A program made the position numbers and the translations under genes. A DNA stretch of 64,000 nt from Candidatus Melainabacteria bacterium 17Bon1m (GTDB taxonomy: Bacteria > Cyanobacteriota > Vampirovibrionia > Obscuribacterales > Obscuribacteraceae): positions 888,974 to 952,973 of the forward strand of contig JAVLKG010000003.1 in NCBI GenBank assembly GCA_032128875.1, given 5' to 3'. This document shows, in pieces, positions 25,891 through 44,322 of the stretch. The notes below the pieces were generated by a model. The model saw nothing but the letters and a program-made list of their open reading frames with translations. It did not search any database and was not told the origin of the DNA. The first letter of the stretch is position 1. Each line of letters opens with the position of its first letter.

Positions 25891-26161
25891 GTGCCGTAAT
25901 TTTCCTTCTCAGCCCTTGCTCAAATCTCGCGTATTCTTAGCCCAGTTCTAACAGGTTGAAAACAGGTTTCGTGTTACATTCATAGTGGTCGGCTAGAAGT
26001 TTATAAGCGTCCGGCTCAAACCTGAAATCAGTCCCAAAACATTGTATTGTAGGGCTTTTCAGGTGGGGTTCTTTGTGTCTTGTTCAATCACGAATTAGAC
26101 AATATGAGTGGAACCACCGATTTAGTCTAACACGCGTCTCCCGGGAGGGTTGGTAACTGCG

Positions 26162-27598
26162 ATGATGGCATTGTCCAGCAACATTCTCAATTTATTTGGC
26201 GCAGTTCTGGCTGTTATTTTTCTCTGGAGCTTTGTTCGAGCGCAGGCGTGGAAAGAACTGTCAGCGAAGAATTTGGTCGCTTCGATCAAGCCTCTTCTCT
26301 TCACATTGATTCCTCTTTGCTCACTTGCGTTCATAGGTACATTCGCCAAAGTCTGCACTTACTGGGACATCGCATACATTGCTCTTGGCGTCGTGATTCC
26401 GTATATCCTCAGCCAAGTCGGCTTGCCAGTTTTCTATCGCTCTATTCTTTTATTGGTTCTCTCTGCTGTAGTCGTTCTGCACCCGGGTGCCGTAGTTGGT
26501 GATATCACCTCTACATTGATCGGCCTTCTCAGTTGGAAGGCGATGGAAAACATGCACAAATTGCCGGAATCTACTTTTGAAGACATTCTTCCTGCATTTG
26601 TTTTTCTTTCGAGCACCTTCTGGTTCAAAATAGGAGGCTCAACTGGTGATGAAGTTAGAAACACAACTTTAGTGCTCGCATCGCTGGTCATCGGGCTTTT
26701 CTTGCGCTGGAGTGAACGACCTCTGGTTGGAAACGATCCGTACTGGTGGAGAAGAATTCTCATCGCTGCAAGCGGCGGATTGTTCCTCCTAGTTGTGATC
26801 AACAAACTTTTGCTTGCTCCGAAAATTGCGACAATTGCAGCTTTGGCTGGCGCTTCCTTCTTCTTTGCTTATTTGTTTGAGAAACTGACGCAAGAAGATG
26901 GAGAGAAAGGCGAAATGCTTAAAGGCTTCAAATCGCTCGTCTTCGTCGGTATTCTCACTTTGCTTGCCACTCGTCTATTTGGAATGCTGGGTTTGTGCGT
27001 CGTTGCTTCCGCCGCCGTTGTAGCTAGAAAGCCGGGGCTTGCACAAACAGTTGGCATATTCTTCGCCTCACGCGTTTTGCTGCAAGGCTTCATGTCTGCG
27101 TACAATGCTAACGTCACCGGCGTAAATATCATGCACACTTACTGCTACGCCGCGATGTTCGGCGGCATCCTCGCGATGTTCGTGATCAGTTCGCTATTTA
27201 GAGAGACCGAGGCTCGCAAATATTTGCCTTTTGCGCTGGTTGGCGCTGGCGTGACACTGCCGGTAGTGTCCAATTATTTCCTGCATGCAGAACCGTCTTG
27301 CGCGCTCTTGTCCTCGGTTCTTGTCGGCGCTGTGCTGCTTGCTGTGTTTTTGCAACATGCTTATGATTTGAAACTGCCCGAGCACGAGAACATCATTTTG
27401 GTTCCCCCTCTCATGATGTCGGTCGCGTATCTTTCCGGTTCGTTAATCGAATTAGGCAATAATGCACCTTCGAATTTGAAGACTCAAGTGATCGCAGTTC
27501 TTCTGGCAGTCGCGACTATCGTTTGTGTTGTAACCCACCTGCTCACTGGCAAGAACGCACCAGTCCAGCCCGCAGAGCCGGAACCCAAACCGGAATAA
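26162..27598 (+). CDS. Hypothetical polytopic membrane protein
   Basis: About 480 aa, almost entirely hydrophobic helices; no recognised motif. Confidence 0.8.
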   Translation: MMALSSNILNLFGAVLAVIFLWSFVRAQAWKELSAKNLVASIKPLLFTLIPLCSLAFIGTFAKVCTYWDIAYIALGVVIPYILSQVGLPVFYRSILLLVLSAVVVLHPGAVVGDITSTLIGLLSWKAMENMHKLPESTFEDILPAFVFLSSTFWFKIGGSTGDEVRNTTLVLASLVIGLFLRWSERPLVGNDPYWWRRILIAASGGLFLLVVINKLLLAPKIATIAALAGASFFFAYLFEKLTQEDGEKGEMLKGFKSLVFVGILTLLATRLFGMLGLCVVASAAVVARKPGLAQTVGIFFASRVLLQGFMSAYNANVTGVNIMHTYCYAAMFGGILAMFVISSLFRETEARKYLPFALVGAGVTLPVVSNYFLHAEPSCALLSSVLVGAVLLAVFLQHAYDLKLPEHENIILVPPLMMSVAYLSGSLIELGNNAPSNLKTQVIAVLLAVATIVCVVTHLLTGKNAPVQPAEPEPKPE

Positions 27599-33513: not shown

Positions 33514-34017
33514 GTGTTTAGCTACTTTAAGAAACTCATTAAAGTGCAGCGCTTTCAATCGAATAACAGCTCATTGCCTTACTTCACGCTCGCCAAACTT
33601 CGCCTGGCGGCGCATCCACAAGCCCGCTCGGAGGCTTTATCACGGTTGGCAAAGAGCAAAATAGAACAGGTGCTTGTAAGAGTCGCGGAAAATTCCAATA
33701 CTCCACAAGATACTCTGTGCGATTTGGCGCTTTCAGATTCTGCAGATGTAAGAGCTGCAGTGGCGGACAATCAAAACACCCCGGCACGCGCGCTTTTCTT
33801 GCTTGCAATGGATAAAGACTTAGATGTCCGGTACAGCATTGCGGAAAACCACAACGCACCTCCTGCGGTGCTTCAACTTCTCACACAAGATGAGAATCCG
33901 TATGTCGCTTGCAGGGCTTCATCGACGTTGAAGCGTGCATTGGACTATCCGAATATTTCAGGTTCGGACCGTCTATGGGGCGGTGAAGAGCGCTTCCGGC
34001 GTTCAGGAACAGGTTGA
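33514..34017 (+). CDS. Leucine-rich-variant (LRV)/HEAT-like repeat protein
   Basis: 24-aa repeats VRVAENSNTP / VRAAVADNQNTP / VRYSIAENHNAP. Confidence 0.82.
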   Translation: MFSYFKKLIKVQRFQSNNSSLPYFTLAKLRLAAHPQARSEALSRLAKSKIEQVLVRVAENSNTPQDTLCDLALSDSADVRAAVADNQNTPARALFLLAMDKDLDVRYSIAENHNAPPAVLQLLTQDENPYVACRASSTLKRALDYPNISGSDRLWGGEERFRRSGTG

Positions 34018-34140: not shown

Positions 34141-34809
34141 CTAGGCAGATTCTTTGAGGTAAGGTGCCAATTGGGCTTGAATCTTCACGCGGGCGCGAGA
34201 GATTCTTGATTTCACCGTTCCCAATTCGGTGTTGGTGATGACGGCGATTTCTTCATAGGACAAACCATCAACTTCGCGAAGAAGGACGGACTGTCTGAAC
34301 TGTTGTGGGATTTTTTCCAGAGCTTCGCCGAGCGCTTGAACCAATTCCATTCTTTGGAATGCTTTGTCTGGTTGAGTTGTCGTGTCGGCAATGGCGCGTT
34401 CTGCATTCTTTGTGCCATCTTCGCTTTCCACTGGTTCATCAAGCGAGATAACGTCTTGGTTGCGAACTTTTCGTCTCAGTTCGTCATAGTAGAGGTTGGT
34501 GACTATCTGTCCGAGCCAGGCTTTAAAAGCGGCTGGGCTTCTCAGTTGATCGATGGATTTCCACATCCTGATATATGCTTCTTGCACGATATCTTGCGTG
34601 TCCGTCCATTCGGGAGCGCGCTTGCGGATCATCGCAACAATGGTTGTTTTATGGCGCTTCAAAAGTTGGTCAATTGCACCTGCTCTGTGTTGCTGGCAGG
34701 CGACGATAAGTTCGGCGTCGGTCATATCGCTGAAATTCTTCTGCGATGCAACTACCGAAAGGTGATTGACTTTCTTCGCGCTTGGAAGGAATTTCACGGT
34801 ATTACTCAT
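34141..34809 (-). CDS. ECF sigma-70 factor, cyanobacterial SigG/RpoE-like
   Basis: DIVQEAYIRMW, FKAWLGQIVTNLYYDELRR (region 2); LREVDGLSYEEIA...GTVKSRISRAR (region 4). Confidence 0.93.
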   Translation of the reverse strand: MSNTVKFLPSAKKVNHLSVVASQKNFSDMTDAELIVACQQHRAGAIDQLLKRHKTTIVAMIRKRAPEWTDTQDIVQEAYIRMWKSIDQLRSPAAFKAWLGQIVTNLYYDELRRKVRNQDVISLDEPVESEDGTKNAERAIADTTTQPDKAFQRMELVQALGEALEKIPQQFRQSVLLREVDGLSYEEIAVITNTELGTVKSRISRARVKIQAQLAPYLKESA

Positions 34810-34940
34810 TTTTTTCTCTCCACGTCTTAGGACGGTAAATAGCAGCAAAATACCCGCTCCGACGGCATGTGTGCCGTTGGTCGGTTTTTAAAGGTGGGAG
34901 GCGTTTCGTATTCGCCTTACCCTTTCATTCTGCCACCGCC

Positions 34941-34966: not shown

Positions 34967-35175
34967 TGCAGTGAAAAGAGGTTTGATATCGCTTGTCTGA
35001 TGCTAGAAAACCAGGTAAGGTTCGCCGTTTTATAGATTGTTACGCTCATTTTCGGGAAGCGATATAGGGTTTACTGGTAGTGCTCTTTGTTGAACATGCA
35101 ATTGTGTAAGATCATGCCTCACTTTTTATTGGAAAGAGCGAAACGCTGATGAAAGGCTGCTTTAACAGAAATGAC

Positions 35176-35200
35176 AAAAAAGGCGGAGAGATCCGCCTTC
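35176..35200 (-). terminator. Intrinsic terminator
   Basis: Minus strand AAGGCGGA-TCTC-TCCGCCTTTTTT. Confidence 0.8.
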
Positions 35201-35487
35201 TCTGTTTTGTCTCACGTTCCGTTCGGCATAACCCTGCGAGAAGCTAGGCCGATTCTCTGAAAAACTTTTGATTACTTCTAATTTTGCCATTGGCATATGG
35301 AAGCAACAACAATGGTTTGCCCTAGTGAAGTGTCTCTTGATTTCCCGTGTTGCAAAATCTCTTATCCGTCAGAATGCAAGTGTTTTCTGTCGATGTTACG
35401 TAAGATTTCGGGCTGCTGTATCGGGTTTTCCCGTAGGAATGGGCCCTGTACTAGAGTCTGATTTTACTGTGAAGTCTGCCACCAATT

Positions 35488-36213
35488 TCAGCGTGTTCGC
35501 AAGCGAGATTTACTTTGAGATCTATATAGATCCCTGGAGATAAATGTATCGTGCCCATCATCACTGCGGAAAACCTCGACAAGCAACTCACCCGGAGAGC
35601 CCGTTTGCTCAAGCCGTTTCAGTTGAGCCTTTTCACAACTCTGGGCCATTTTCTGCGACCCAAGAAATTCGACTTTCAATTGTGACGCATTAGTGAGAGC
35701 CCTTATCTGAATGGGCGTGTCCGTCGTGTTCTCAAACTTAAGGTCTGCTCTGCCATACCAGACCGTTGCATCGAAGCCTGGTGGCACCGTCTGCATGGTG
35801 CGCAAATGAGGGACTCTCTCCACGATCTTTAATCCCGCGGTAAGTGCAGATTGATATAGGCACGACGATAAAAGACAAATGCCACCACCCAGAGTATTAG
35901 GCGTTTCCCCACCTAAATAAGATGGAGCCGGCTGGTAACCTTGTTTTCCGGTACGTGGGCCAACTTTACCGTTGAAGGAGAAAGTTTCTCCCGGTTTCAC
36001 AATCGCACCATCAAGCCTCTGTGCTGCTTGATACAAGTTGTTCTTTTGCTCGTATGAAAGCGCCCGCAAACTTACGACGCGTGAAACTATTACTTTTGAA
36101 AATGGGTATACAGCGAAATTTGTCGCTACCAATGTGCCCGTCAACAGAATCAAGAAGATGATTTTGAAATCCAGTAGAGTGGACACTGCATTTTTCACGG
36201 TTGAGAGTTTCAT
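35488..36213 (-). CDS. Membrane-anchored VanW-domain protein
   Basis: LDGAIVKPGETFSFN..VGPRT..GY, GGGICLLSSCLY, ERVPH, GFDATV, DLKFEN. Confidence 0.9.
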   Translation of the reverse strand: MKLSTVKNAVSTLLDFKIIFLILLTGTLVATNFAVYPFSKVIVSRVVSLRALSYEQKNNLYQAAQRLDGAIVKPGETFSFNGKVGPRTGKQGYQPAPSYLGGETPNTLGGGICLLSSCLYQSALTAGLKIVERVPHLRTMQTVPPGFDATVWYGRADLKFENTTDTPIQIRALTNASQLKVEFLGSQKMAQSCEKAQLKRLEQTGSPGELLVEVFRSDDGHDTFISRDLYRSQSKSRLRTR

Positions 36214-36217
36214 ATTC

Positions 36218-39200
36218 CTACTCGGTTATCTTGAGCACATCAAGCATGGAATACCCGCGGACACTCTTGGTGTACATTCCTTCGAATGTGACCGGGTTCA
36301 ACTGCACGTCACCAGGCAATTCCATGCGCAACAGCGTGTGGAATTCTGATTTGCCTGCCGGCATTTCTGTGCCGAAGAATACGATCCGGTCATCGAGTAC
36401 ATCCTGGTGAGTCCACCATGGTTGCCCCCAGTCCCCTTCAATAACGGTGCCACCACTTTCGCCGTCCATCTCTTCCGATTTGTGATTTTCGACAACTTCG
36501 GCACCTGAAGGCAGAGGCGACTCGACGATGATGTATGGCACATGTACCGGTGTTTCTATGTAAACCTTCATAAGCACAGTCTCGCCGGACTTAATCTGTC
36601 CGCCTGCAATTGGTACCGTGCGGAATCGAAGAGTTCCGGTGCTAGCTTCTTTTACTGTTTGTAAGCGGAAGAATTTGCGTGTAACTTTCAGCCCTTTTGG
36701 AAGTGCTTCAGCCTCTATATTTTCGCCCGGTAAGAGCTTTCTGAAATAGGTTTGCAAAAGTGTGTAATAGAGCTTTCCTGCTCCCTCTTTTTTGAGCGTT
36801 ATGGTGTCTTTGAGATCGGCAGGCAATGAGACTTTGCTTTCCGCTGCGTACCGACTCTTAGGGTCAAACTTCAGTTGCGCGAACACACTGTCTTTCATCA
36901 GAGCATCCAGTGAGAAGTTTGTCTCTTTGCTGCTGCGATTGAGAATGTCATCTTTGAGAAGCACTAAGAAAACCTCAGCTGTGGTTTTTGTGTTGTCCCA
37001 ACCAGATTTGCCTCTCTGCATCATGAGCCAGCGCTTGATTGCTTCAACCTTTTGCTCATTTTTTGGTTCCATCGTCAGCACCGCGCGCAGTGCCAGAGCT
37101 GTCGACTCCACCCCTGTGAAACGGTATGAGTACTCAAGCATGTGCGGTTTAAAGGTCGGACCCATCAGCTTTTGGGCGAGCTGCAGTGTATGGTCCCAAT
37201 CGATGGTCTCACCACTTTCATTGGCAAGCTCAAGCAATCTTTGATAAAACACATTCGCTTGTTTGTCTTGCTTCGCATTTTTGAGCGTTATCGTCAGATA
37301 CGTGAGCGCTTCAGGTGTTAATGAGTTGACCTCTTTCTCGAAGCTCGCGCAGATTTTCGCATCTGGTTTTTGCCCAGTCAGGCTGAGAGCGTAGAGAGCT
37401 CTTGCCAGATCGATGCGTTTTTCTCTGTAGTCATAGGCTTCGATCTTGATTTTGGGATCGTGCAATTGTTTGTTCAATTCGACGACGTTCTTGCTCAACC
37501 ATTGGCGACCCGTATCAATCATCTCGCGCGGGACGCTGTAGTCGCAATCCTTGAGCATGAGCAAGCCTTCGACCACATACGATGTCAGATACATGTTGCT
37601 CTCGTCGTCGACCCACCATCCCCAACCTCCATCGCTGTGGTGGTGGTCGGTGAGCTTCTTCATTCCCATTTTGAAAATCTCGTCAAATTTCTTTTTCTGT
37701 GCCGCAGTTACCGGCATGTCGAGGTTTTTCTGCAATTGGAAGGCGACGATTGAAGGCACGAGCCGGCTTAGGGTTTGCTCTGTGCACCCGTATGGATAGT
37801 CGATCAAGGAATCGAAGCTGCCGATTACAGGGCCCATCGAAGAGCTTGCCACAGTTAAATTGACTTTGCCTCTGTCTGCTCCTTTCACCGGAGGTTGTAT
37901 CCGCAAATCAACTTGCTGCGAATCTTGAGTCAATACGCCTGTCTTCGCGACAAATGCCGGCACTCCAAGTGGACGTACAGGCAATTTCACTTCCATCGCG
38001 TCTGCGCGTGTGTCGCCTATTGCTTTGACACTAATCGCCACTTGCCCAGCGGACAAAACGTTGACCGGCCAAATATGGCGATACGCCTTTTCCGGCGCGA
38101 CCTTGAATGTCGCAGTGAGCGGCGCATCTGTACTCAGTTGTCGCGTCATGTTGACTGACAATTTGATGTTCTGCTCTTTTTCAGAATAGTTGTGCACGAT
38201 GCATGTGACCTGACTGTGATCTCCTTCGCTGAAGAATCTAGGCAGTGCCAAACGGACGAGCACGTCTTGAGTCGAGAGAACCTTATTGATGCATGAGCCG
38301 ACTTCGGTCGTCATCGAAACTCCACGTACGGTCGCGCGCCAAGTCGTGAGATTGTCCGGCAGCTTGACTTTCGCTGTAGCGATGCCGTCTTTGTCGGTAA
38401 TCAATTCAGGTGCCCAGAAGGCTGTGTCCTTGAAGTCTTTTCTCACGCGCGGCTCGATTTTGTCAGGACCTCCTGAGTAAGTTTCCGGGAACGAGCACAT
38501 CACCTGCACGAGATTCTCTCGCCTGGCGTAAAAGAATTTGCGAATGTCTTGCGCAAGCTCTGCTCTAATTGAATAGATGCTTTCGTCCACGACACCAAGT
38601 GAAAGCTCAGTGTTGGCGGCGGGAGTATGATCTGCTTTCTCTGCCTTAATTGTATATGTCACCGTTTCGCCTGGTTGATAACGAGGTTTGTCGGTTGCAA
38701 CTTGCACCGTCAAGAAATTGTTCGCCGGCGAAACTTTGATCATCTTGTTCTGCGTGTAGAACTGATGTTTTTTAGTTACGAGTACTGCGTTGACGTACAC
38801 ATTGGGTGCGTACTTTTCCTCAATCGGAATTTCAATCAACTGCGCTGTCGATGAAAGCGGTACTACATGCCGTTTATAGATGGTTGTCCCTTCAACGGTT
38901 ATTACCGCCTGTGCGCCTTCGCTTCCGGTGACAGGTCCGCTAAACATCAAGCGAGCCGTGTCTCCTGGTTTGTAAATTGCTTTATCGAAGCGCAGTGAGA
39001 CTGGTTCGCTCTGCGCGTTGTTGCCGCTTAAAATGTAAGGATAGTCAGGGCTGGCGATCCATATGCTTGACTGGTCACCGACGAGGTTGCCCGCACCATC
39101 CGAGGCACGTGCGGAAATGTAGTAGGTGTCCGTAGCGTACTGGTCTTTAACCGGGAATATGACTTTGCCTTTTCCTTGAGCATCAGTCACAACTTTCGCT

Positions 39201-41245
39201 TCGCCAAGTACTTGTTCATCTCTATAAGTGTACGTCGAAGCGTCCCATGGATAGCGGCTGAGGCGCATTGTAATCGCTTGATTGGCGACCGGCTTGCCGT
39301 CGTAATCAATCGCTGTCACGGTCGCATTCAAACTGTCGCCGACTTTGGCGACATAAGAATCTGGCGTGACGAACAAACAGAAATTCCCCGCAGAAACTTT
39401 TGCAGTGCCGGAACTCACCACAGTCATTCGGCTGATGTCCGTAACTTCTGCTTCGATTTTGTAATTACGATCTCTGTATTCACTGGAATTAGGATGCTCG
39501 CCGAGTGGCTCAGCTTTCTTTGTTTGAACTTCGACTATTGCCTCACCGTTGTCGTCGGTCGTGACAGTGCCTTCCTCGACATAGTCCCCACCGTACTCTC
39601 CGTAGTCTTCGTCTGAATCCCAATCATCGAAGAAAGCAAAATATTCAGGTCTGTCTTGCAGTCTGTATCGACTAGACCAATCTGTCGATGAATAGATTGA
39701 ATACTTCACCTGCGCATTGGCAACCGGTCCACCAAAGAAATATGTAGCGTGGATTTTGGCTTTCACCTTCTGTCCGGCGACATATCGTGCTTCAAGTGGT
39801 TTGACTTCAACCTGATATTCCGGCTTTCTGTATTGCGCGACTTCGAAATTTTCGTACGCTACCGTGCCGTCAGGATAGGTGATATTGATGGAATAGGCGC
39901 CCGTCTTGCCGTCTTGTGGAATTGAGTACAGTCCGTGGAATGTTCCGTGATCTGATGTTTTGATTTTTCCGTTGAACAACTCTTCGCTGTTCGGATCTTC
40001 TATATGAACATTCAGTTCTATATTTTTGCCGGGGTTTTTGAATCCGTCCGGCGAAATTCCTCTGGCTATGCCTTTGAAATTGACCGTCTGCCCAAGCCGA
40101 TAGACTGGGCGATCCGTATAAAAATAAGTCTGCATCTTGTCGGACGAAGAGCGCCAATAGTTCATAGCACCGTAAGCGATATTGCTTCCTGACACTCCCA
40201 TGACTAAGGTGTTGAAACTTGATTGAGTGTTGGTTGATTTTGGCAGTGCACATTCGACAAAACCATCGTTCGCCGTCACGCCGCTTGCCAGTGCATTCTT
40301 GGGGGTGTCCTTGATAAGGCTTTCGTAGATGTTTATCTGTGCGCCGCTTACTGGTTTTAGCGTATTGAGATCAATGGCGCGCACGAGAGTTTTTTCCGGC
40401 GCTTGCCAAACTACAAGACCGATATCAGTGACGCTAAACCAGTGAATAGCGTGCGTGTGTTTCGTCGAATTGACGCCTTGCGCTTCACCATAAACTACAT
40501 AATCGCCCTGGGGAAGCGGCTTGTCGAGCTGAAATTCTGCACGTGATGAATCATTTTCATCTTGCTGGAGATCGCGGCTGAGAACGGCAACCGGAGTGTC
40601 TTTTGGAAATGGGATCGTGAATTTGTTCTGATTGCTTCTGTAAAGCTCCAGGCTGTTGCTCAGTTCATAGCCCCATTTGTCGAAGGACTTCTCTTTCGCT
40701 AGTTTGAGAATGTCTGTTTTGTAGACCTTAACTTTGACGTTTTTCGAGGCGGTAGCATTTGCCCAGAATCGAGGCGCCTCCTTGCTCGTGAATGTGCGCA
40801 TGTTCGAGGCAATGGAAAGGCTCGGTTCAATCAATGAAAGGTGAGTGCTGTCATGCACAACAGTATTCTTTCCGTCTTCGATAAAAACACCGTTAACGTA
40901 TTCGGTGGCATATCCGGTGGCACGGAGCTTTATTTGATACTCCCCAGCCGGTAACTGATCGATACGATATGTGCCGTCTTGGTTTATCCAAACACCGCGC
41001 TCGACTTGCGGGCCGCCACGCGGCCCATATGCCATCGCGTAAACTTTGTTGCCTTTCAGGTCGTAGCTTGAAATTCCAAACCCTCTCTCTTCGAGATCGA
41101 TCTGTCCTGAAACCGACCCGACTGGATGTTCGAGATAAGCACTGAGCAGTGCCAAGAACAGGAGCTGTACGACAACCAGATTCCATGCCGTAAGTATGCT
41201 GCGAGGCTGGTTTTGGATGACTTTGGTATTAATTATGGAAGACAT
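36218..41245 (-). CDS. Bacterial alpha-2-macroglobulin family protein with intact thioester motif
   Basis: YTDRPVYRLGQ (MG2), YRKPEY, VVDESIY, RKDFKDTAFW, LPDNLTTWR, YPYGCTEQ (CTEQ at 37775-37786), DGGWGWW; N-terminal TM anchor plus Ig-like carboxypeptidase-regulatory-type domain. Confidence 0.96.
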   Translation of the reverse strand: MSSIINTKVIQNQPRSILTAWNLVVVQLLFLALLSAYLEHPVGSVSGQIDLEERGFGISSYDLKGNKVYAMAYGPRGGPQVERGVWINQDGTYRIDQLPAGEYQIKLRATGYATEYVNGVFIEDGKNTVVHDSTHLSLIEPSLSIASNMRTFTSKEAPRFWANATASKNVKVKVYKTDILKLAKEKSFDKWGYELSNSLELYRSNQNKFTIPFPKDTPVAVLSRDLQQDENDSSRAEFQLDKPLPQGDYVVYGEAQGVNSTKHTHAIHWFSVTDIGLVVWQAPEKTLVRAIDLNTLKPVSGAQINIYESLIKDTPKNALASGVTANDGFVECALPKSTNTQSSFNTLVMGVSGSNIAYGAMNYWRSSSDKMQTYFYTDRPVYRLGQTVNFKGIARGISPDGFKNPGKNIELNVHIEDPNSEELFNGKIKTSDHGTFHGLYSIPQDGKTGAYSINITYPDGTVAYENFEVAQYRKPEYQVEVKPLEARYVAGQKVKAKIHATYFFGGPVANAQVKYSIYSSTDWSSRYRLQDRPEYFAFFDDWDSDEDYGEYGGDYVEEGTVTTDDNGEAIVEVQTKKAEPLGEHPNSSEYRDRNYKIEAEVTDISRMTVVSSGTAKVSAGNFCLFVTPDSYVAKVGDSLNATVTAIDYDGKPVANQAITMRLSRYPWDASTYTYRDEQVLGEAKVVTDAQGKGKVIFPVKDQYATDTYYISARASDGAGNLVGDQSSIWIASPDYPYILSGNNAQSEPVSLRFDKAIYKPGDTARLMFSGPVTGSEGAQAVITVEGTTIYKRHVVPLSSTAQLIEIPIEEKYAPNVYVNAVLVTKKHQFYTQNKMIKVSPANNFLTVQVATDKPRYQPGETVTYTIKAEKADHTPAANTELSLGVVDESIYSIRAELAQDIRKFFYARRENLVQVMCSFPETYSGGPDKIEPRVRKDFKDTAFWAPELITDKDGIATAKVKLPDNLTTWRATVRGVSMTTEVGSCINKVLSTQDVLVRLALPRFFSEGDHSQVTCIVHNYSEKEQNIKLSVNMTRQLSTDAPLTATFKVAPEKAYRHIWPVNVLSAGQVAISVKAIGDTRADAMEVKLPVRPLGVPAFVAKTGVLTQDSQQVDLRIQPPVKGADRGKVNLTVASSSMGPVIGSFDSLIDYPYGCTEQTLSRLVPSIVAFQLQKNLDMPVTAAQKKKFDEIFKMGMKKLTDHHHSDGGWGWWVDDESNMYLTSYVVEGLLMLKDCDYSVPREMIDTGRQWLSKNVVELNKQLHDPKIKIEAYDYREKRIDLARALYALSLTGQKPDAKICASFEKEVNSLTPEALTYLTITLKNAKQDKQANVFYQRLLELANESGETIDWDHTLQLAQKLMGPTFKPHMLEYSYRFTGVESTALALRAVLTMEPKNEQKVEAIKRWLMMQRGKSGWDNTKTTAEVFLVLLKDDILNRSSKETNFSLDALMKDSVFAQLKFDPKSRYAAESKVSLPADLKDTITLKKEGAGKLYYTLLQTYFRKLLPGENIEAEALPKGLKVTRKFFRLQTVKEASTGTLRFRTVPIAGGQIKSGETVLMKVYIETPVHVPYIIVESPLPSGAEVVENHKSEEMDGESGGTVIEGDWGQPWWTHQDVLDDRIVFFGTEMPAGKSEFHTLLRMELPGDVQLNPVTFEGMYTKSVRGYSMLDVLKITE

Positions 41246-41855
41246 CGGCGGTAATCCTGTACATTTGGCAACGAGAGTTGACGGGAATTCCAGCTTTCAA
41301 TTTGCATTGCACCAGTTGGTAGTGTGCATCGACGCATTCGCCCGGCAGAAGTACTGCCGCACGCCCTGCCTGTCTAACAAAGAGTCCGTGTTTTAAAGGA
41401 TTGATTGCGCGAATACTTTCAATTGGATCAACTGATTTGATGACTGTAACCTGTGCTTTGAGCTTGCCGATTTCTCCGCGCTTCACCTGGCTGAATCTGT
41501 ATTCTTTTGTGAGCGCGGCCTCGGTCGTAAAAACTGTTGAGCTGATGAGATCTGCATGTTCCGGTGTGATTGAGCCCCAGCATGCTCGAGTCTTTCCATC
41601 TTTAGACAATGTGACGAAAAGACCTCTCGGTTCTCCGGTCACTTTTCCTTTGGAAAGTTCCTCGGTTAATTGCGTCAGCGATTTTCGTTTACCATCCGGA
41701 AGAAAATGATTTTCAACTGTTCGCATAGCAATCTCATTCAGATGCAGCGATTTCACTCGCGCATCCGTATCAGGTTGCGCGTTCGCCAGTGCAAGTGGCG
41801 ACGCGGCAAAAACTATGCTGCTGTAAGCAGCAATATAGGCGACAAGACGCTTCAT
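41229..41855 (-). CDS. AMMECR1-domain protein with signal peptide
   Basis: RGLFVTL..DGKTRACWGS, EYRF..V, HGLFV..GRAAVLLP, KLKAGI; N-terminus MKRLVAYIAAYSSIVFAASPLALA; overlaps A2M start by 17 nt. Confidence 0.85.
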   Translation of the reverse strand: MKRLVAYIAAYSSIVFAASPLALANAQPDTDARVKSLHLNEIAMRTVENHFLPDGKRKSLTQLTEELSKGKVTGEPRGLFVTLSKDGKTRACWGSITPEHADLISSTVFTTEAALTKEYRFSQVKRGEIGKLKAQVTVIKSVDPIESIRAINPLKHGLFVRQAGRAAVLLPGECVDAHYQLVQCKLKAGIPVNSRCQMYRITADVFHN

Positions 41856-42041
41856 AAACCTAAGAGTTTACCCTGAGTCGCTCGAAGAAATTCACACATG
41901 GAATTTCAACAGACAACTTTCTAACAACCATTATCACCAGAGCCTGTAAACTTATACAGGCGCACAGGTTGCAAAGCTGTGAAATGATTGTGATGGCTTT
42001 GTAAAACGCCAACAGGCGCGCGTTTGTAAGGGTTTCAGCGT

Positions 42042-42968
42042 TTGACTTCCGACTCAGACAGCAGCAATAACTCCATTGGGCGGCGCGACTTTTTGAAGTC
42101 GATGTTTGGGCTGGGCGGGCTTTTGGAAGCTTCAGAAGCGTCTGCAAAGCCAGCACCCGGGCGCACTATCTTCTTCTGGACCGACTTGAAGACCGGGCAG
42201 GTAGGCTTCCCTACCGGCTTTATGGTCGAGGCTGGCCTGCCTGGCTCGGTTATGAAGATTGTTTCTTCAGCGGCACTCATTGAAGAACGCTTGGTCAACC
42301 CTAACGACACCGTTGACTGCATGGGGCACGCCACGATTCAAGGTCGAAAAATCAATTGTTTAGCCGCGCATGGAAAAGTAGACGCGGTGCACGCCATTGC
42401 CCAATCGTGCAATGTTTATTTTGCGACAGTTTCAAAACAAATGAGTCAGGCCTTGCTCTTTGAGTATGCCAAGAAATTTGGATTTGATTCTGCGGTCGGG
42501 TCTGTGAAGAGCGGGCTGTTTCCAAAGCCTGAGAAATCTTCAGCCTGGCCTTATGTTGTTGGTTTGAGTCCTAACCTGCATCCCAACGGATTGCAGCTTC
42601 TGCGCATGAGTGCCCTTGTCGCAAATCGCGGTGACGTTCCGTATCTTCATAGCGCTGAAGAAAACGCTCAAGGTAAGCCTCGATCGAAAGTGGAGCTTTC
42701 AGATCTCACCTGGGGACGTTTGCAGCAAGGCATGGAGCTGGCTGTACGCGAAGGGACTGCCAAAAAATTAGACCCTAACCACAAGTTGCATATTGCCGCA
42801 AAAACCGGCACGGCACCGCACGGCAACAAGTTTCAGTCTTGGGTGACAGGGTATTTCCCGTGCGAGGCACCTCGTCACGCATTTTGCCTGGGCGCGACCA
42901 GCGGCACCAGCTCAGAGGTTGCTGTACCGAAAGCCAAAGAGTTTTTGTTCGCAACTGAATGGCCGTAG
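42042..42968 (+). CDS. Tat-exported stand-alone penicillin-binding transpeptidase domain
   Basis: GRRDFLK Tat motif; PGSVMK (SxxK), SCN (SxN), AKTGTA (KTG). Confidence 0.9.
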   Translation: MTSDSDSSNNSIGRRDFLKSMFGLGGLLEASEASAKPAPGRTIFFWTDLKTGQVGFPTGFMVEAGLPGSVMKIVSSAALIEERLVNPNDTVDCMGHATIQGRKINCLAAHGKVDAVHAIAQSCNVYFATVSKQMSQALLFEYAKKFGFDSAVGSVKSGLFPKPEKSSAWPYVVGLSPNLHPNGLQLLRMSALVANRGDVPYLHSAEENAQGKPRSKVELSDLTWGRLQQGMELAVREGTAKKLDPNHKLHIAAKTGTAPHGNKFQSWVTGYFPCEAPRHAFCLGATSGTSSEVAVPKAKEFLFATEWP

Positions 42969-44200
42969 GCCTATCTATATATAAGAACGCATTTTGCTGG
43001 GGAAAAACGCTTTTGAATCGCGAGAAGTTGAAAGTGCGGTTTTTTTTGTTTTTTCATTTGTCGATTGCAATAGCTTTGCTTTTGTTCTCAAACACGATTG
43101 CTCTGGCGAACCCGCCAGGCATTTATGTCACTCTCTTTCAATCGCGCCCTCGCATTGACACGCTATATTTGCGCGGTCCATTCGTTGTATCCAATCCGAT
43201 TCACGCTGTCTTTCATGAAGGACTCTTTGAATGCGTGAGCGATGGAGGAGTGATTAGATTCGCACAGATAATTGGTCGAAAAAGAAAACCCATTTTGCGT
43301 GCACCGCATTTGGTGATATCAGATCGAGCTCGCTCAACAATCGAGATTGGTCCGGACCTTGAGCACATGCGCAAATACTATGGGCAAATGACAATCAGCC
43401 GGCGCTCCGCCGGACCACGCGATAGACAAGGCGGCGGACTGAATGTAGTAAATTTGATCGACAGCTTTAATTATGTGGCATCAGTTGTCGGTGGCGAAAC
43501 TACGGCAGATTTCGGCAAAGAAGCTCTCAAAGCCCAGGCAGTGCTCGTCTATACGCGCCTCTCGCCAAAAGGACGACATCCGGCGTTGAATGATACGACC
43601 GACGAGATGGTCTACCTCGGCGCCCAGCATGAACGCGCTGATGTCATAGATGCGGTAATCGATGTTGATCGCCGGAGACTGATGTTCAATGATCGACCCG
43701 CTCAAGCCTTTTTCCATGCCTGTTGCGCCGGGCGCACCAGCAAGGGCAGTGACATCTTTGGAGAAAATGCCAAAGCCTTGGTGTATTTGCAGTCCGTTCC
43801 TTGTAACTATTGCAAGGCGTCTCCACTTTATGGCACGACGACAAAGCAGATTCCAGCAACCATATTCAACCGTGAAATAGCTGAAGGGGGGCCGAATGTG
43901 CTCAAAGTCGACCAAGCAAAGCGTATTGTCATTGCCGACATTCGCAAGGGCGGTAAAACTGAGACTGTGAGTGGCTACCAGTTGTGGCTGCGTTTGGGAC
44001 AGCGTCTGGGCTGGGACAAGGTGCCTGGTACTCGCTATCAGATAAGGAAGACGGGTTCTGCTTACACGATAAAATCAAGTGGTGGCGGGCACGGAGTCGG
44101 TCTTTGTCAGTGGGGCGCACAAGGGCTGGCGAAGCAAAATAAGACCTATACTGAGATTTTGCAGTATTACTTTCCTGGCGCTACCGTAGAGAAACGCTGA
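42959..44200 (+). CDS. SpoIID/LytB-domain lytic transglycosylase
   Basis: YVASVVGGE, EALKAQAV, FFHACCAGRT, GHGVGLCQWGA, EILQYYFPG; overlaps upstream gene by 10 nt. Confidence 0.92.
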   Translation: MAVGLSIYKNAFCWGKTLLNREKLKVRFFLFFHLSIAIALLLFSNTIALANPPGIYVTLFQSRPRIDTLYLRGPFVVSNPIHAVFHEGLFECVSDGGVIRFAQIIGRKRKPILRAPHLVISDRARSTIEIGPDLEHMRKYYGQMTISRRSAGPRDRQGGGLNVVNLIDSFNYVASVVGGETTADFGKEALKAQAVLVYTRLSPKGRHPALNDTTDEMVYLGAQHERADVIDAVIDVDRRRLMFNDRPAQAFFHACCAGRTSKGSDIFGENAKALVYLQSVPCNYCKASPLYGTTTKQIPATIFNREIAEGGPNVLKVDQAKRIVIADIRKGGKTETVSGYQLWLRLGQRLGWDKVPGTRYQIRKTGSAYTIKSSGGGHGVGLCQWGAQGLAKQNKTYTEILQYYFPGATVEKR

Positions 44201-44322
44201 GAAAGCCGCCAAAGAAAAGCGCCGAATATCTGGTCTTTTCTAGTCTTTGCACATGCAAAGCGGGCTGTCTTCTGTTAGATTATCTTCTTGCGCTAGGTCT
44301 AGGCTAAGAGAAGGAACGGCAC

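Follow-up and report, generated by a model that had tools for sequence, protein, structure and literature searches.

Bacterial alpha-2-macroglobulins (A2Ms) are described in two genetic contexts: type I proteins carry a thioester and are encoded next to pbpC, and type II proteins have no thioester and belong to the six-gene mag operon (excerpts of PMC5764988 and PMC3735191). In the same excerpts, A2M and PBP1c are put forward as a periplasmic defence and repair pair, stated as a hypothesis (PMC5764988), a membrane partner is said to matter for the stability of type II A2M (PMC5764988), and ECAM is described with a lipobox (PMC3735191). VanW domains have been published as LD-transpeptidases with a Cys-His-Asp triad, found mostly in Gram-positive bacteria (PMC11348318, in excerpt; PMC12729407); the excerpt of PMC11348318 adds that VanW proteins are scarce outside Gram-positive bacteria and that, of seven other VanW proteins assayed, only three were confirmed as active. 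Here we analysed a stretch of 64,000 nucleotides from Candidatus Melainabacteria bacterium 17Bon1m (the window), which holds a cluster of five envelope genes encoding a VanW-domain protein, an A2M, an exported AMMECR1-family protein, a transpeptidase-only penicillin-binding protein (PBP) and a SpoIID/LytB-domain protein. The cluster recurs in two classes of non-photosynthetic Cyanobacteriota, often with a sixth gene, and its products may serve the cell wall together.

The window lies in a 7.55-Mb assembly that is 93% complete. The cluster comprises the following features (aa, amino acids):

35488-36213, minus strand: VanW-domain protein, 241 aa (Pfam VanW, 1.3e-44)
36218-41245, minus strand: A2M, type I-like, 1675 aa (Pfam MG2, bait-region (A2M_BRD), A2M, TED and bMG10)
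41229-41855, minus strand: AMMECR1-family exported protein, 208 aa (Pfam AMMECR1, 4.1e-26)
41856-42041, no strand: divergent intergenic region, 186 bp, presumed promoters of both arms (from the gene coordinates)
42042-42968, plus strand: transpeptidase-only PBP, 308 aa (Pfam Transpeptidase, 1.6e-26, residues 67-299)
42959-44200, plus strand: SpoIID/LytB-domain protein, 413 aa (Pfam SpoIID, 2.9e-11; TIGR02669, 134.6 bits)

The list of open reading frames (ORFs) confirmed these genes to the base, three on the minus and two on the plus strand. An earlier, sequence-only reading of the window had described two tightly coupled arms, and this agreed with the ORF coordinates throughout: AMMECR1 and A2M overlap by 17 nt, A2M and VanW are separated by 4 nt, PBP and SpoIID overlap by 10 nt, and the arms diverge from the 186-bp gap. 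Each arm would be expected to be co-expressed; a simple sigma-70 scan found no site within the gap at 41856-42041. Pfam confirmed each of the family assignments of that reading (VanW, A2M, AMMECR1, transpeptidase PBP and SpoIID). Its statement that all five products bear export or anchor signals likewise stood, as VanW, AMMECR1, SpoIID and A2M have one N-terminal hydrophobic segment each and the PBP has a twin-arginine motif; signal types were assigned by eye from the N-terminal sequences. These export or anchor features were kept in both classes.

Comparison with described systems

The A2M of the window is type I-like and predicted to be helix-anchored. It has the macroglobulin, bait-region and thioester domains of type I together with a CXEQ motif (GCTEQ, residues 1153-1157), of which C1154, E1156 and Q1157 were invariant in 17 aligned orthologues, and among solved structures it is closest to E. 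coli YfhM (6.8e-28). As in the type I systems (E. coli yfhM-pbpC and Salmonella A2M), it is a thioester A2M of ~1650 aa, apparently attached to the inner membrane, and its gene lies beside that of a penicillin-binding transpeptidase, for which the same trap-and-mend logic can be proposed. Unlike these systems, the window A2M appears to be anchored by a transmembrane helix (hydrophobic residues 24-38, followed by EHPVGS) and not by a lipobox; no lipobox Cys was found in the A2M N-terminus here or in either class. The locus also departs from type I in that the neighbouring protein is not PBP1c but a transpeptidase domain alone, of 308 aa and PBP2-like (class B), with no glycosyltransferase, and in that AMMECR1, VanW, SpoIID and a membrane protein are added. 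The best PBP1C (TIGR02073) match in the 93%-complete assembly reached 351 bits against a cut-off of 494. The genome encodes a second A2M of 1553 aa (L114 9671-14332, contig C1), with TED and receptor-binding-like domains.

With the type II systems (P. aeruginosa magABCDEF and E. coli yfaA-T-S-Q-P) the locus shares a multi-gene envelope operon around an A2M and a SpoIID-matching member, YfaQ in E. coli. Unlike type II A2Ms, which are without the thioester motif in the excerpted sources, the window A2M carries CXEQ and therefore falls outside type II, and no window protein matched Pfam DUF2135, DUF2300, DUF1175 or DUF2138, whereas E. coli yfa proteins do. The sequence-only reading had named pbpC and mag/yfa as the two known A2M contexts, as do the excerpts of PMC5764988 and PMC3735191, and had held that neither includes VanW or AMMECR1; the E. 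coli yfa proteins scanned indeed showed neither, nor Transpeptidase. E. coli YfaQ (L115 3149-4798, annotated as tandem DUF2300) scored 27 bits with the Pfam SpoIID model over residues 312-374 (cut-off 23), and YfaT gave a weak NlpC/P60 match (3.8e-4). Comparison of YfaQ with the window SpoIID protein by BLASTP returned nothing significant, and the link between them runs through the Pfam SpoIID model only.

The same reading had proposed that the cluster is an undescribed A2M architecture. Full-text searches found no description of a macroglobulin with VanW or AMMECR1; for macroglobulin and SpoIID, the one paper listed is on the proteins of the thylakoid lumen in Synechococcus sp. PCC 7002, and no macroglobulin was mentioned in the papers listed for Melainabacteria, Vampirovibrio or Obscuribacter. 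To this extent the proposal held, but a SpoIID-like partner of A2M is not unprecedented, since YfaQ matches SpoIID. Because the E. coli type II operon also contains the SpoIID-matching YfaQ and the NlpC/P60-like YfaT, the pairing of A2M with wall enzymes is a recurrent theme, and the cluster is best filed as a variation on the pairing of A2M with peptidoglycan enzymes, with a type I A2M, other wall enzymes and two partners of unassigned function.

The window VanW protein resembles C. difficile Ldt4 and Ldt5 in that its VanW domain is membrane-anchored and keeps the Cys, His and Asp residues. Unlike in these proteins, no PG4, G5 or SH3 accessory domain was detected in it, and its host is a relative of the cyanobacteria.

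Conservation of the cluster in two classes

An AMMECR1 alignment was used to gather 57 loci from related species, labelled, with few exceptions, Candidatus Melainabacteria, Obscuribacterales or Obscuribacteraceae; the search pattern was narrow, and the number of testable loci varies from gene to gene. A2M lay directly after AMMECR1 in 55 of 55 testable loci, VanW followed A2M in 41 of 43 (and was elsewhere within the locus in the remaining 2), PBP was divergent and adjacent in 49 of 50, and SpoIID, testable in 46 loci, adjoined PBP in 25 and had another place within the locus in 11. Sixteen loci were also fetched around AMMECR1 matches in 16 genomes. Nine of these had all five genes in the divergent order of the window, including 2 from another family of the class at ~35% identity; 3 agreed as far as the contig end, 3 departed in a single gene (SpoIID lacking in one, SpoIID 7 kb off in another and VanW 2.5 kb off in the third), and 1 had AMMECR1 alone. 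Judged by AMMECR1 matches, the cluster was present in 23 of 24 sampled genomes of the family.

We then extended the comparison with an AMMECR1 profile search over 401 genomes of the phylum and fetched 20 strong-match loci outside the window's class. In a second non-photosynthetic class, all five genes were co-directional, in the order PBP, SpoIID, AMMECR1, A2M, VanW, in 6 of the 20 loci, and 4 more agreed as far as their contigs extended. Five loci, all from one family, had AMMECR1-A2M-VanW only; the rest were 1 short contig with AMMECR1 and A2M and 4 loci with AMMECR1 alone. When the membrane protein was included, 6 complete loci carried a six-gene co-directional operon (membrane protein, PBP, SpoIID, AMMECR1, A2M, VanW), and 2 further loci of the second class carried this order up to the contig end. 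In the family with the triad alone, the three genes were flanked by genes for an O-antigen-ligase-like (Wzy_C) protein, an NHL-repeat protein and a PMT-family glycosyltransferase (L102 7393-8694 and 15742-19981; L107 18-4267 and 11299-13760), and L107 also had a lipid A acyltransferase gene.

These comparisons uphold the five-gene synteny beyond the window's own genus on which the sequence-only reading had staked its case. Genes to the left of the cluster were kept only within the genus and those to its right only within the family, while the gene order of the cluster recurred across genera, families and two classes; on these grounds, we conclude that the recurring arrangement is not due to chance. 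The picture of a divergent five-gene locus nevertheless had to be amended. The five-gene cluster is real, but the divergent layout is specific to the window's class, with the sister class co-directional, and the stable core consists of AMMECR1-A2M-VanW only, as PBP and SpoIID are absent from the loci of one family.

The photosystem reaction-centre family was present in 164 of the 401 genomes and was found in none of the sampled genomes of cluster-bearing families (f24, 0 of 10; f22, 0 of 8; f19, 0 of 1; f10, 0 of 8; f36, 0 of 1). No AMMECR1-profile match was found in the large reaction-centre families (f18, 0 of 45; f13, 0 of 25; f32, 0 of 29; f20, 0 of 20), and the sole reaction-centre genome with such a match (G308) had no A2M at that locus. 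In this 401-genome sample, the cluster was therefore found only in non-photosynthetic lineages.

A few full-cluster contigs were labelled Proteobacteria, Bryobacterales, Planktothrix or Drouetiella. These labels may be unreliable; the cluster proteins on these contigs were 42-50% identical to those of the window and had the Obscuribacterales arrangement. DNA near-identical to 35300-44300 (0.73-1.00 of sampled words) was found in sequencing runs of seven studies, among them runs labelled as metagenomes of plankton, drinking water, seawater and an oil production facility. In three runs labelled RNA-Seq, the region lies on contigs of 35-50 kb that span everything; these look like DNA in the library and give no guide to transcription or operon ends.

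Partner proteins and the sixth gene

Active-site conservation was scored as presence in at least 95% of the 24-34 orthologues aligned per protein. The AMMECR1 superfamily is conserved from archaea to humans, and the members met in this analysis are still labelled hypothetical; the nearest solved structures, 1zq7 and 1vaj, are hypothetical proteins. The window AMMECR1 has a signal peptide, and the exported subfamily is small, as 120 of 8487 profile matches among 1.84 billion representatives reached 1e-30. Signal-peptide AMMECR1 proteins with an RGCMG motif occurred in sequence clusters sourced to Armatimonadota and Deltaproteobacteria, and a metagenome scan with sequences of this kind yielded 65 loci, with A2M directly after AMMECR1 in 32 of 48 testable. 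Among 22 sequences from the two classes, F80-V-T82, R90, C92-W-G94 and P171-G-E173 were invariant, and R90/C92/W93/G94 and P171-G-E173 were present in at least 95% of orthologues. The protein resembles AmmeMemoRadiSam system protein A in its fold family and in its R-x-C-x-G motif, which corresponds to RGCIG. Unlike protein A, it has the signal peptide, scores below the cut-off of the corresponding model (TIGR04335, 71.3 against 99) and has A2M and PBP as neighbours, with no Memo or radical-SAM gene at the locus. Complex prediction with mature AMMECR1 and the C-terminal part of A2M only (residues 900-1675) gave a score of 0.00, which speaks neither for nor against a contact.

A separate AMMECR1 match lies elsewhere in the genome of the window, in an open frame of ~530 aa. 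AMMECR1 proteins encoded in a housekeeping context at three other loci (L097, L137 and L140) have an N-terminal extension of ~80 aa; chorismate synthase and a RadA-like ATPase follow in L097 and L140 only, L137 being without chorismate synthase, and one of these three genomes carries photosystem genes. An apparent SpoIID-AMMECR1 fusion in L141 was rejected, because the long ORF is an over-extended frame that overlaps SpoIID in another frame.

The PBP has the active-site motifs SVMK (residues 69-72), SCN (122-124) and KTG (254-256), with S69, K72, S122, K254, T255 and G256 in at least 95% of 24 orthologues and N124 below 95%. It has no glycosyltransferase, pedestal domain or membrane anchor and so does not fit the class A or B high-molecular-weight PBPs; all NCBIfam PBP models scored far under their cut-offs, including the nearest, PBP2/MrdA (102 bits), and orthologues in the sister class are likewise transpeptidase-only. 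Its N-terminus, SIGRRDFLKS, reads by eye as a twin-arginine motif with no hydrophobic segment, and TatC is encoded in the genome. This fits the Tat signal proposed by the sequence-only reading, and the RR motif recurs in class relatives, but the signal is class-specific, since PBPs of the second class have ordinary signal peptides. Three cysteines (C93, C106 and C123) were also present in at least 95% of the 24 orthologues; this is unusual for a protein with a twin-arginine leader and might point to a disulfide or metal site.

The SpoIID protein exceeded the cut-off for SpoIID_LytB (TIGR02669, 134.6 against 83.3 bits) and is a putative lytic transglycosylase. Its E180 was present in at least 95% of 25 orthologues, His and Cys positions were conserved too, and E180 aligns with the Glu of GEMSSEF in the solved SpoIID structure 5i1t, which we take to be the catalytic residue. 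The VanW protein, with a hydrophobic segment at residues 16-30, is a putative LD-transpeptidase. It had been called so by the sequence-only reading, and the call is in keeping with the publication of VanW domains as such enzymes (excerpt of PMC11348318) and with C113, H136 and D148, each present in at least 95% of 26 orthologues; these residues were equated with the Ldt4/Ldt5 triad by motif context and not by residue-level alignment.

Comparison with other loci revealed a sixth, distal member of the cluster, which the sequence-only reading had missed, although the five genes that it named were as claimed. This gene and the terminator-like site nearest the cluster are:

26150-27598, plus strand: polytopic membrane protein, 482 aa, sixth and distal member (orthologues lie within the cluster elsewhere)
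35174-35205, minus strand: terminator-like hairpin with a 14-pair stem and a T-rich tail (consensus scan)

The membrane protein has ~16 predicted helices. In the window, as in its genus, the gene lies ~8 kb from VanW with unrelated genes between; its orthologue adjoins VanW in other genera of the family and is directly upstream of PBP in 8 loci of the second class. No family was found for it in Pfam, NCBIfam or Atlas, and Pfam at E values up to 10 gave nothing for the window protein and nothing relevant for four orthologues; a profile search recovered 19 relatives, all named ones of which are labelled hypothetical. A structure model of middling confidence (pLDDT 66, pTM 0.73) resembles membrane pyrophosphatases (M-PPases). 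VIA-align gave Z scores of 19.0 and 18.1 over ~420 residues (next match 9.2), the best alignment covering 419 residues at a root-mean-square deviation of 4.2 with ~10-11% identity in the M-PPase alignments, and a Foldseek search of the PDB ranked a pyrophosphatase first with weak rows (E 4e-3, TM 0.36-0.47). The H+-PPase profile did not match, and the likeness is limited to the predicted fold; the protein would thus have a pyrophosphatase-like fold and an uncharacterised role. The idea of a SEDS-type glycan polymerase acting with the PBP found no support, as neither the scans nor the structure matches listed included a SEDS family.

The hairpin lies ~280 bp downstream of VanW and probably marks the end of the AMMECR1-A2M-VanW transcript; it has the longest stem among the sites listed in a consensus-based scan that gave 12 terminator-like sites in the region, where shuffled sequence would give 11.4. 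Just beyond it are genes for an extracytoplasmic function (ECF)-type sigma factor (34141-34848, minus strand) and an LRV/HEAT-repeat protein (33514-34017, plus strand), which are shared with the two loci of the same genus only and therefore lie outside the conserved module. The 8 kb of DNA that separates VanW from the membrane-protein gene looks like a genus-specific insertion; encoded between 27646 and 33314 are a TPR protein, a glycosyltransferase of family 20 (trehalose-phosphate synthase type) and an Hpt-domain response regulator, along with two ORFs without a family.

Proposed role and alternative explanations

Taken as a whole, the cluster is best explained, with moderate confidence on our part, as a conserved envelope module of non-photosynthetic Cyanobacteriota that guards and mends the cell wall. 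Its invariant core is three translationally coupled genes, for an exported AMMECR1, an inner-membrane thioester A2M and a membrane-anchored VanW protein, with the transpeptidase-only PBP, the SpoIID/LytB protein and the membrane protein as usual additions. All products would act at the periplasmic face of the inner membrane. There, A2M would covalently trap proteases that cross the outer membrane, the PBP domain would have DD-transpeptidase or DD-carboxypeptidase activity, the VanW enzyme would make presumed 3-3 cross-links and the SpoIID-like enzyme would cut or trim glycan strands; jointly, the wall enzymes would reshape or repair peptidoglycan in one and the same place. Such a defence and repair role, which the sequence-only reading had also proposed, would extend the yfhM-pbpC hypothesis to different and more numerous wall enzymes.

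Several observations weigh against a joint guarding and mending role. PBP and SpoIID were missing from 5 of 5 loci of one family and are therefore not obligatory partners, and in 10 of the 46 relatives testable for SpoIID, the gene was not part of the locus. The sequence of the PBP domain fits cross-linking or mere trimming alike. The second, stand-alone A2M gene of the genome has two histidine kinase genes next to it and no wall genes close by. Members of the exported AMMECR1 subfamily are also found without A2M: L141 and L146 have PBP-SpoIID-AMMECR1 with no A2M downstream, a metagenome contig (L125 40-2422) carries consecutive genes for FtsX, VanW and AMMECR1 that are not followed by A2M, and L030 has AMMECR1 beside an SLH-domain protein. 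At L097 9512-10315, L137 5117-5845 and L140 9833-10576, AMMECR1 stands between a PLP enzyme and a type III pantothenate kinase. Moreover, the published idea of repair by A2M and PBP1c is, in the excerpted source, itself a hypothesis only.

The cluster might instead be a housekeeping module for wall maturation, through 3-3 cross-linking, glycan trimming and DD-peptidase activity, in which A2M protects the enzymes or the wall against periplasmic proteases of the cell itself or of its neighbours. Presence in 23 of 24 family genomes is what a core function would give, the VanW gene is the sole one found in the genome, and no stress regulator is conserved next to the cluster, the ECF sigma gene at 34141-34848 being confined to the same genus. 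However, the wall has other builders, as three class A PBPs and four matches to YkuD-type LD-transpeptidases lie elsewhere in the genome. Furthermore, among the small-genome orders of the class, whole orders were without the strong AMMECR1 type, and family f6 had weak matches only, in open frames of ~450-490 aa, which indicates that the function is dispensable for growth there. We consider a housekeeping role rather unlikely.

A second alternative places AMMECR1 at the service of A2M, as a maturation, locking or recycling factor (for example, acting on the thioester via Cys92), with the wall enzymes as secondary passengers. AMMECR1 was immediately upstream of A2M, with an overlapping start, in 55 of 55 and 16 of 17 loci, the triad with VanW persists where PBP and SpoIID were lost, and the invariant Cys lies in a conserved R-x-C-W-G motif. 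Nonetheless, close relatives of this AMMECR1 occur with PBP and SpoIID or with VanW in the absence of A2M (L141, L146 and L125), and the type I A2M literature on E. coli and Salmonella, in the excerpts of PMC5764988 and PMC3735191, names an adjacent pbpC and no AMMECR1. We therefore judge this alternative improbable. The occurrence of AMMECR1 with wall enzymes but without A2M, although the numbers are small, leans towards AMMECR1 serving the wall enzymes and against a role exclusive to A2M. Our best guess is that it is an accessory of these enzymes, possibly a Cys-dependent enzyme itself.

The weakest explanation, that the genes are functionally unlinked and cluster through shared ancestry alone, draws on the origin of all full-cluster genome loci from one phylum, which makes related genomes non-independent samples, but is very improbable and already disfavoured, because the genes overlap, their order and adjacency are retained between two classes with protein identities of 27-50% while every flanking gene changes, the PBP-SpoIID pair is inverted as a unit and still adjacent, and the gene for the membrane protein is found again and again at one edge of the cluster or the other.

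Going beyond the guarding and mending module itself, it is conceivable, though doubtful, that the exported AMMECR1 is a periplasmic Cys-dependent enzyme or an adaptor that acts on the peptide stems of peptidoglycan with VanW, SpoIID and PBP, or on the A2M thioester, and that the membrane protein, with its pyrophosphatase-like fold, is the inner-membrane platform or energiser of a six-part machine that guards the wall and is ancestral to non-photosynthetic Cyanobacteriota. If true, this would be the first biochemical role for the AMMECR1 superfamily.

All parts of the cluster are amenable to testing by heterologous expression. The analysis draws attention to a family of uncharacterised membrane proteins whose predicted fold is pyrophosphatase-like, places the VanW LD-transpeptidase family in a cyanobacteria-related lineage and gives the AMMECR1 family a concrete, testable envelope context. 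Above all, the cluster represents a third, well-conserved genetic context for bacterial A2Ms, which strengthens the idea that these protease traps work with peptidoglycan enzymes.

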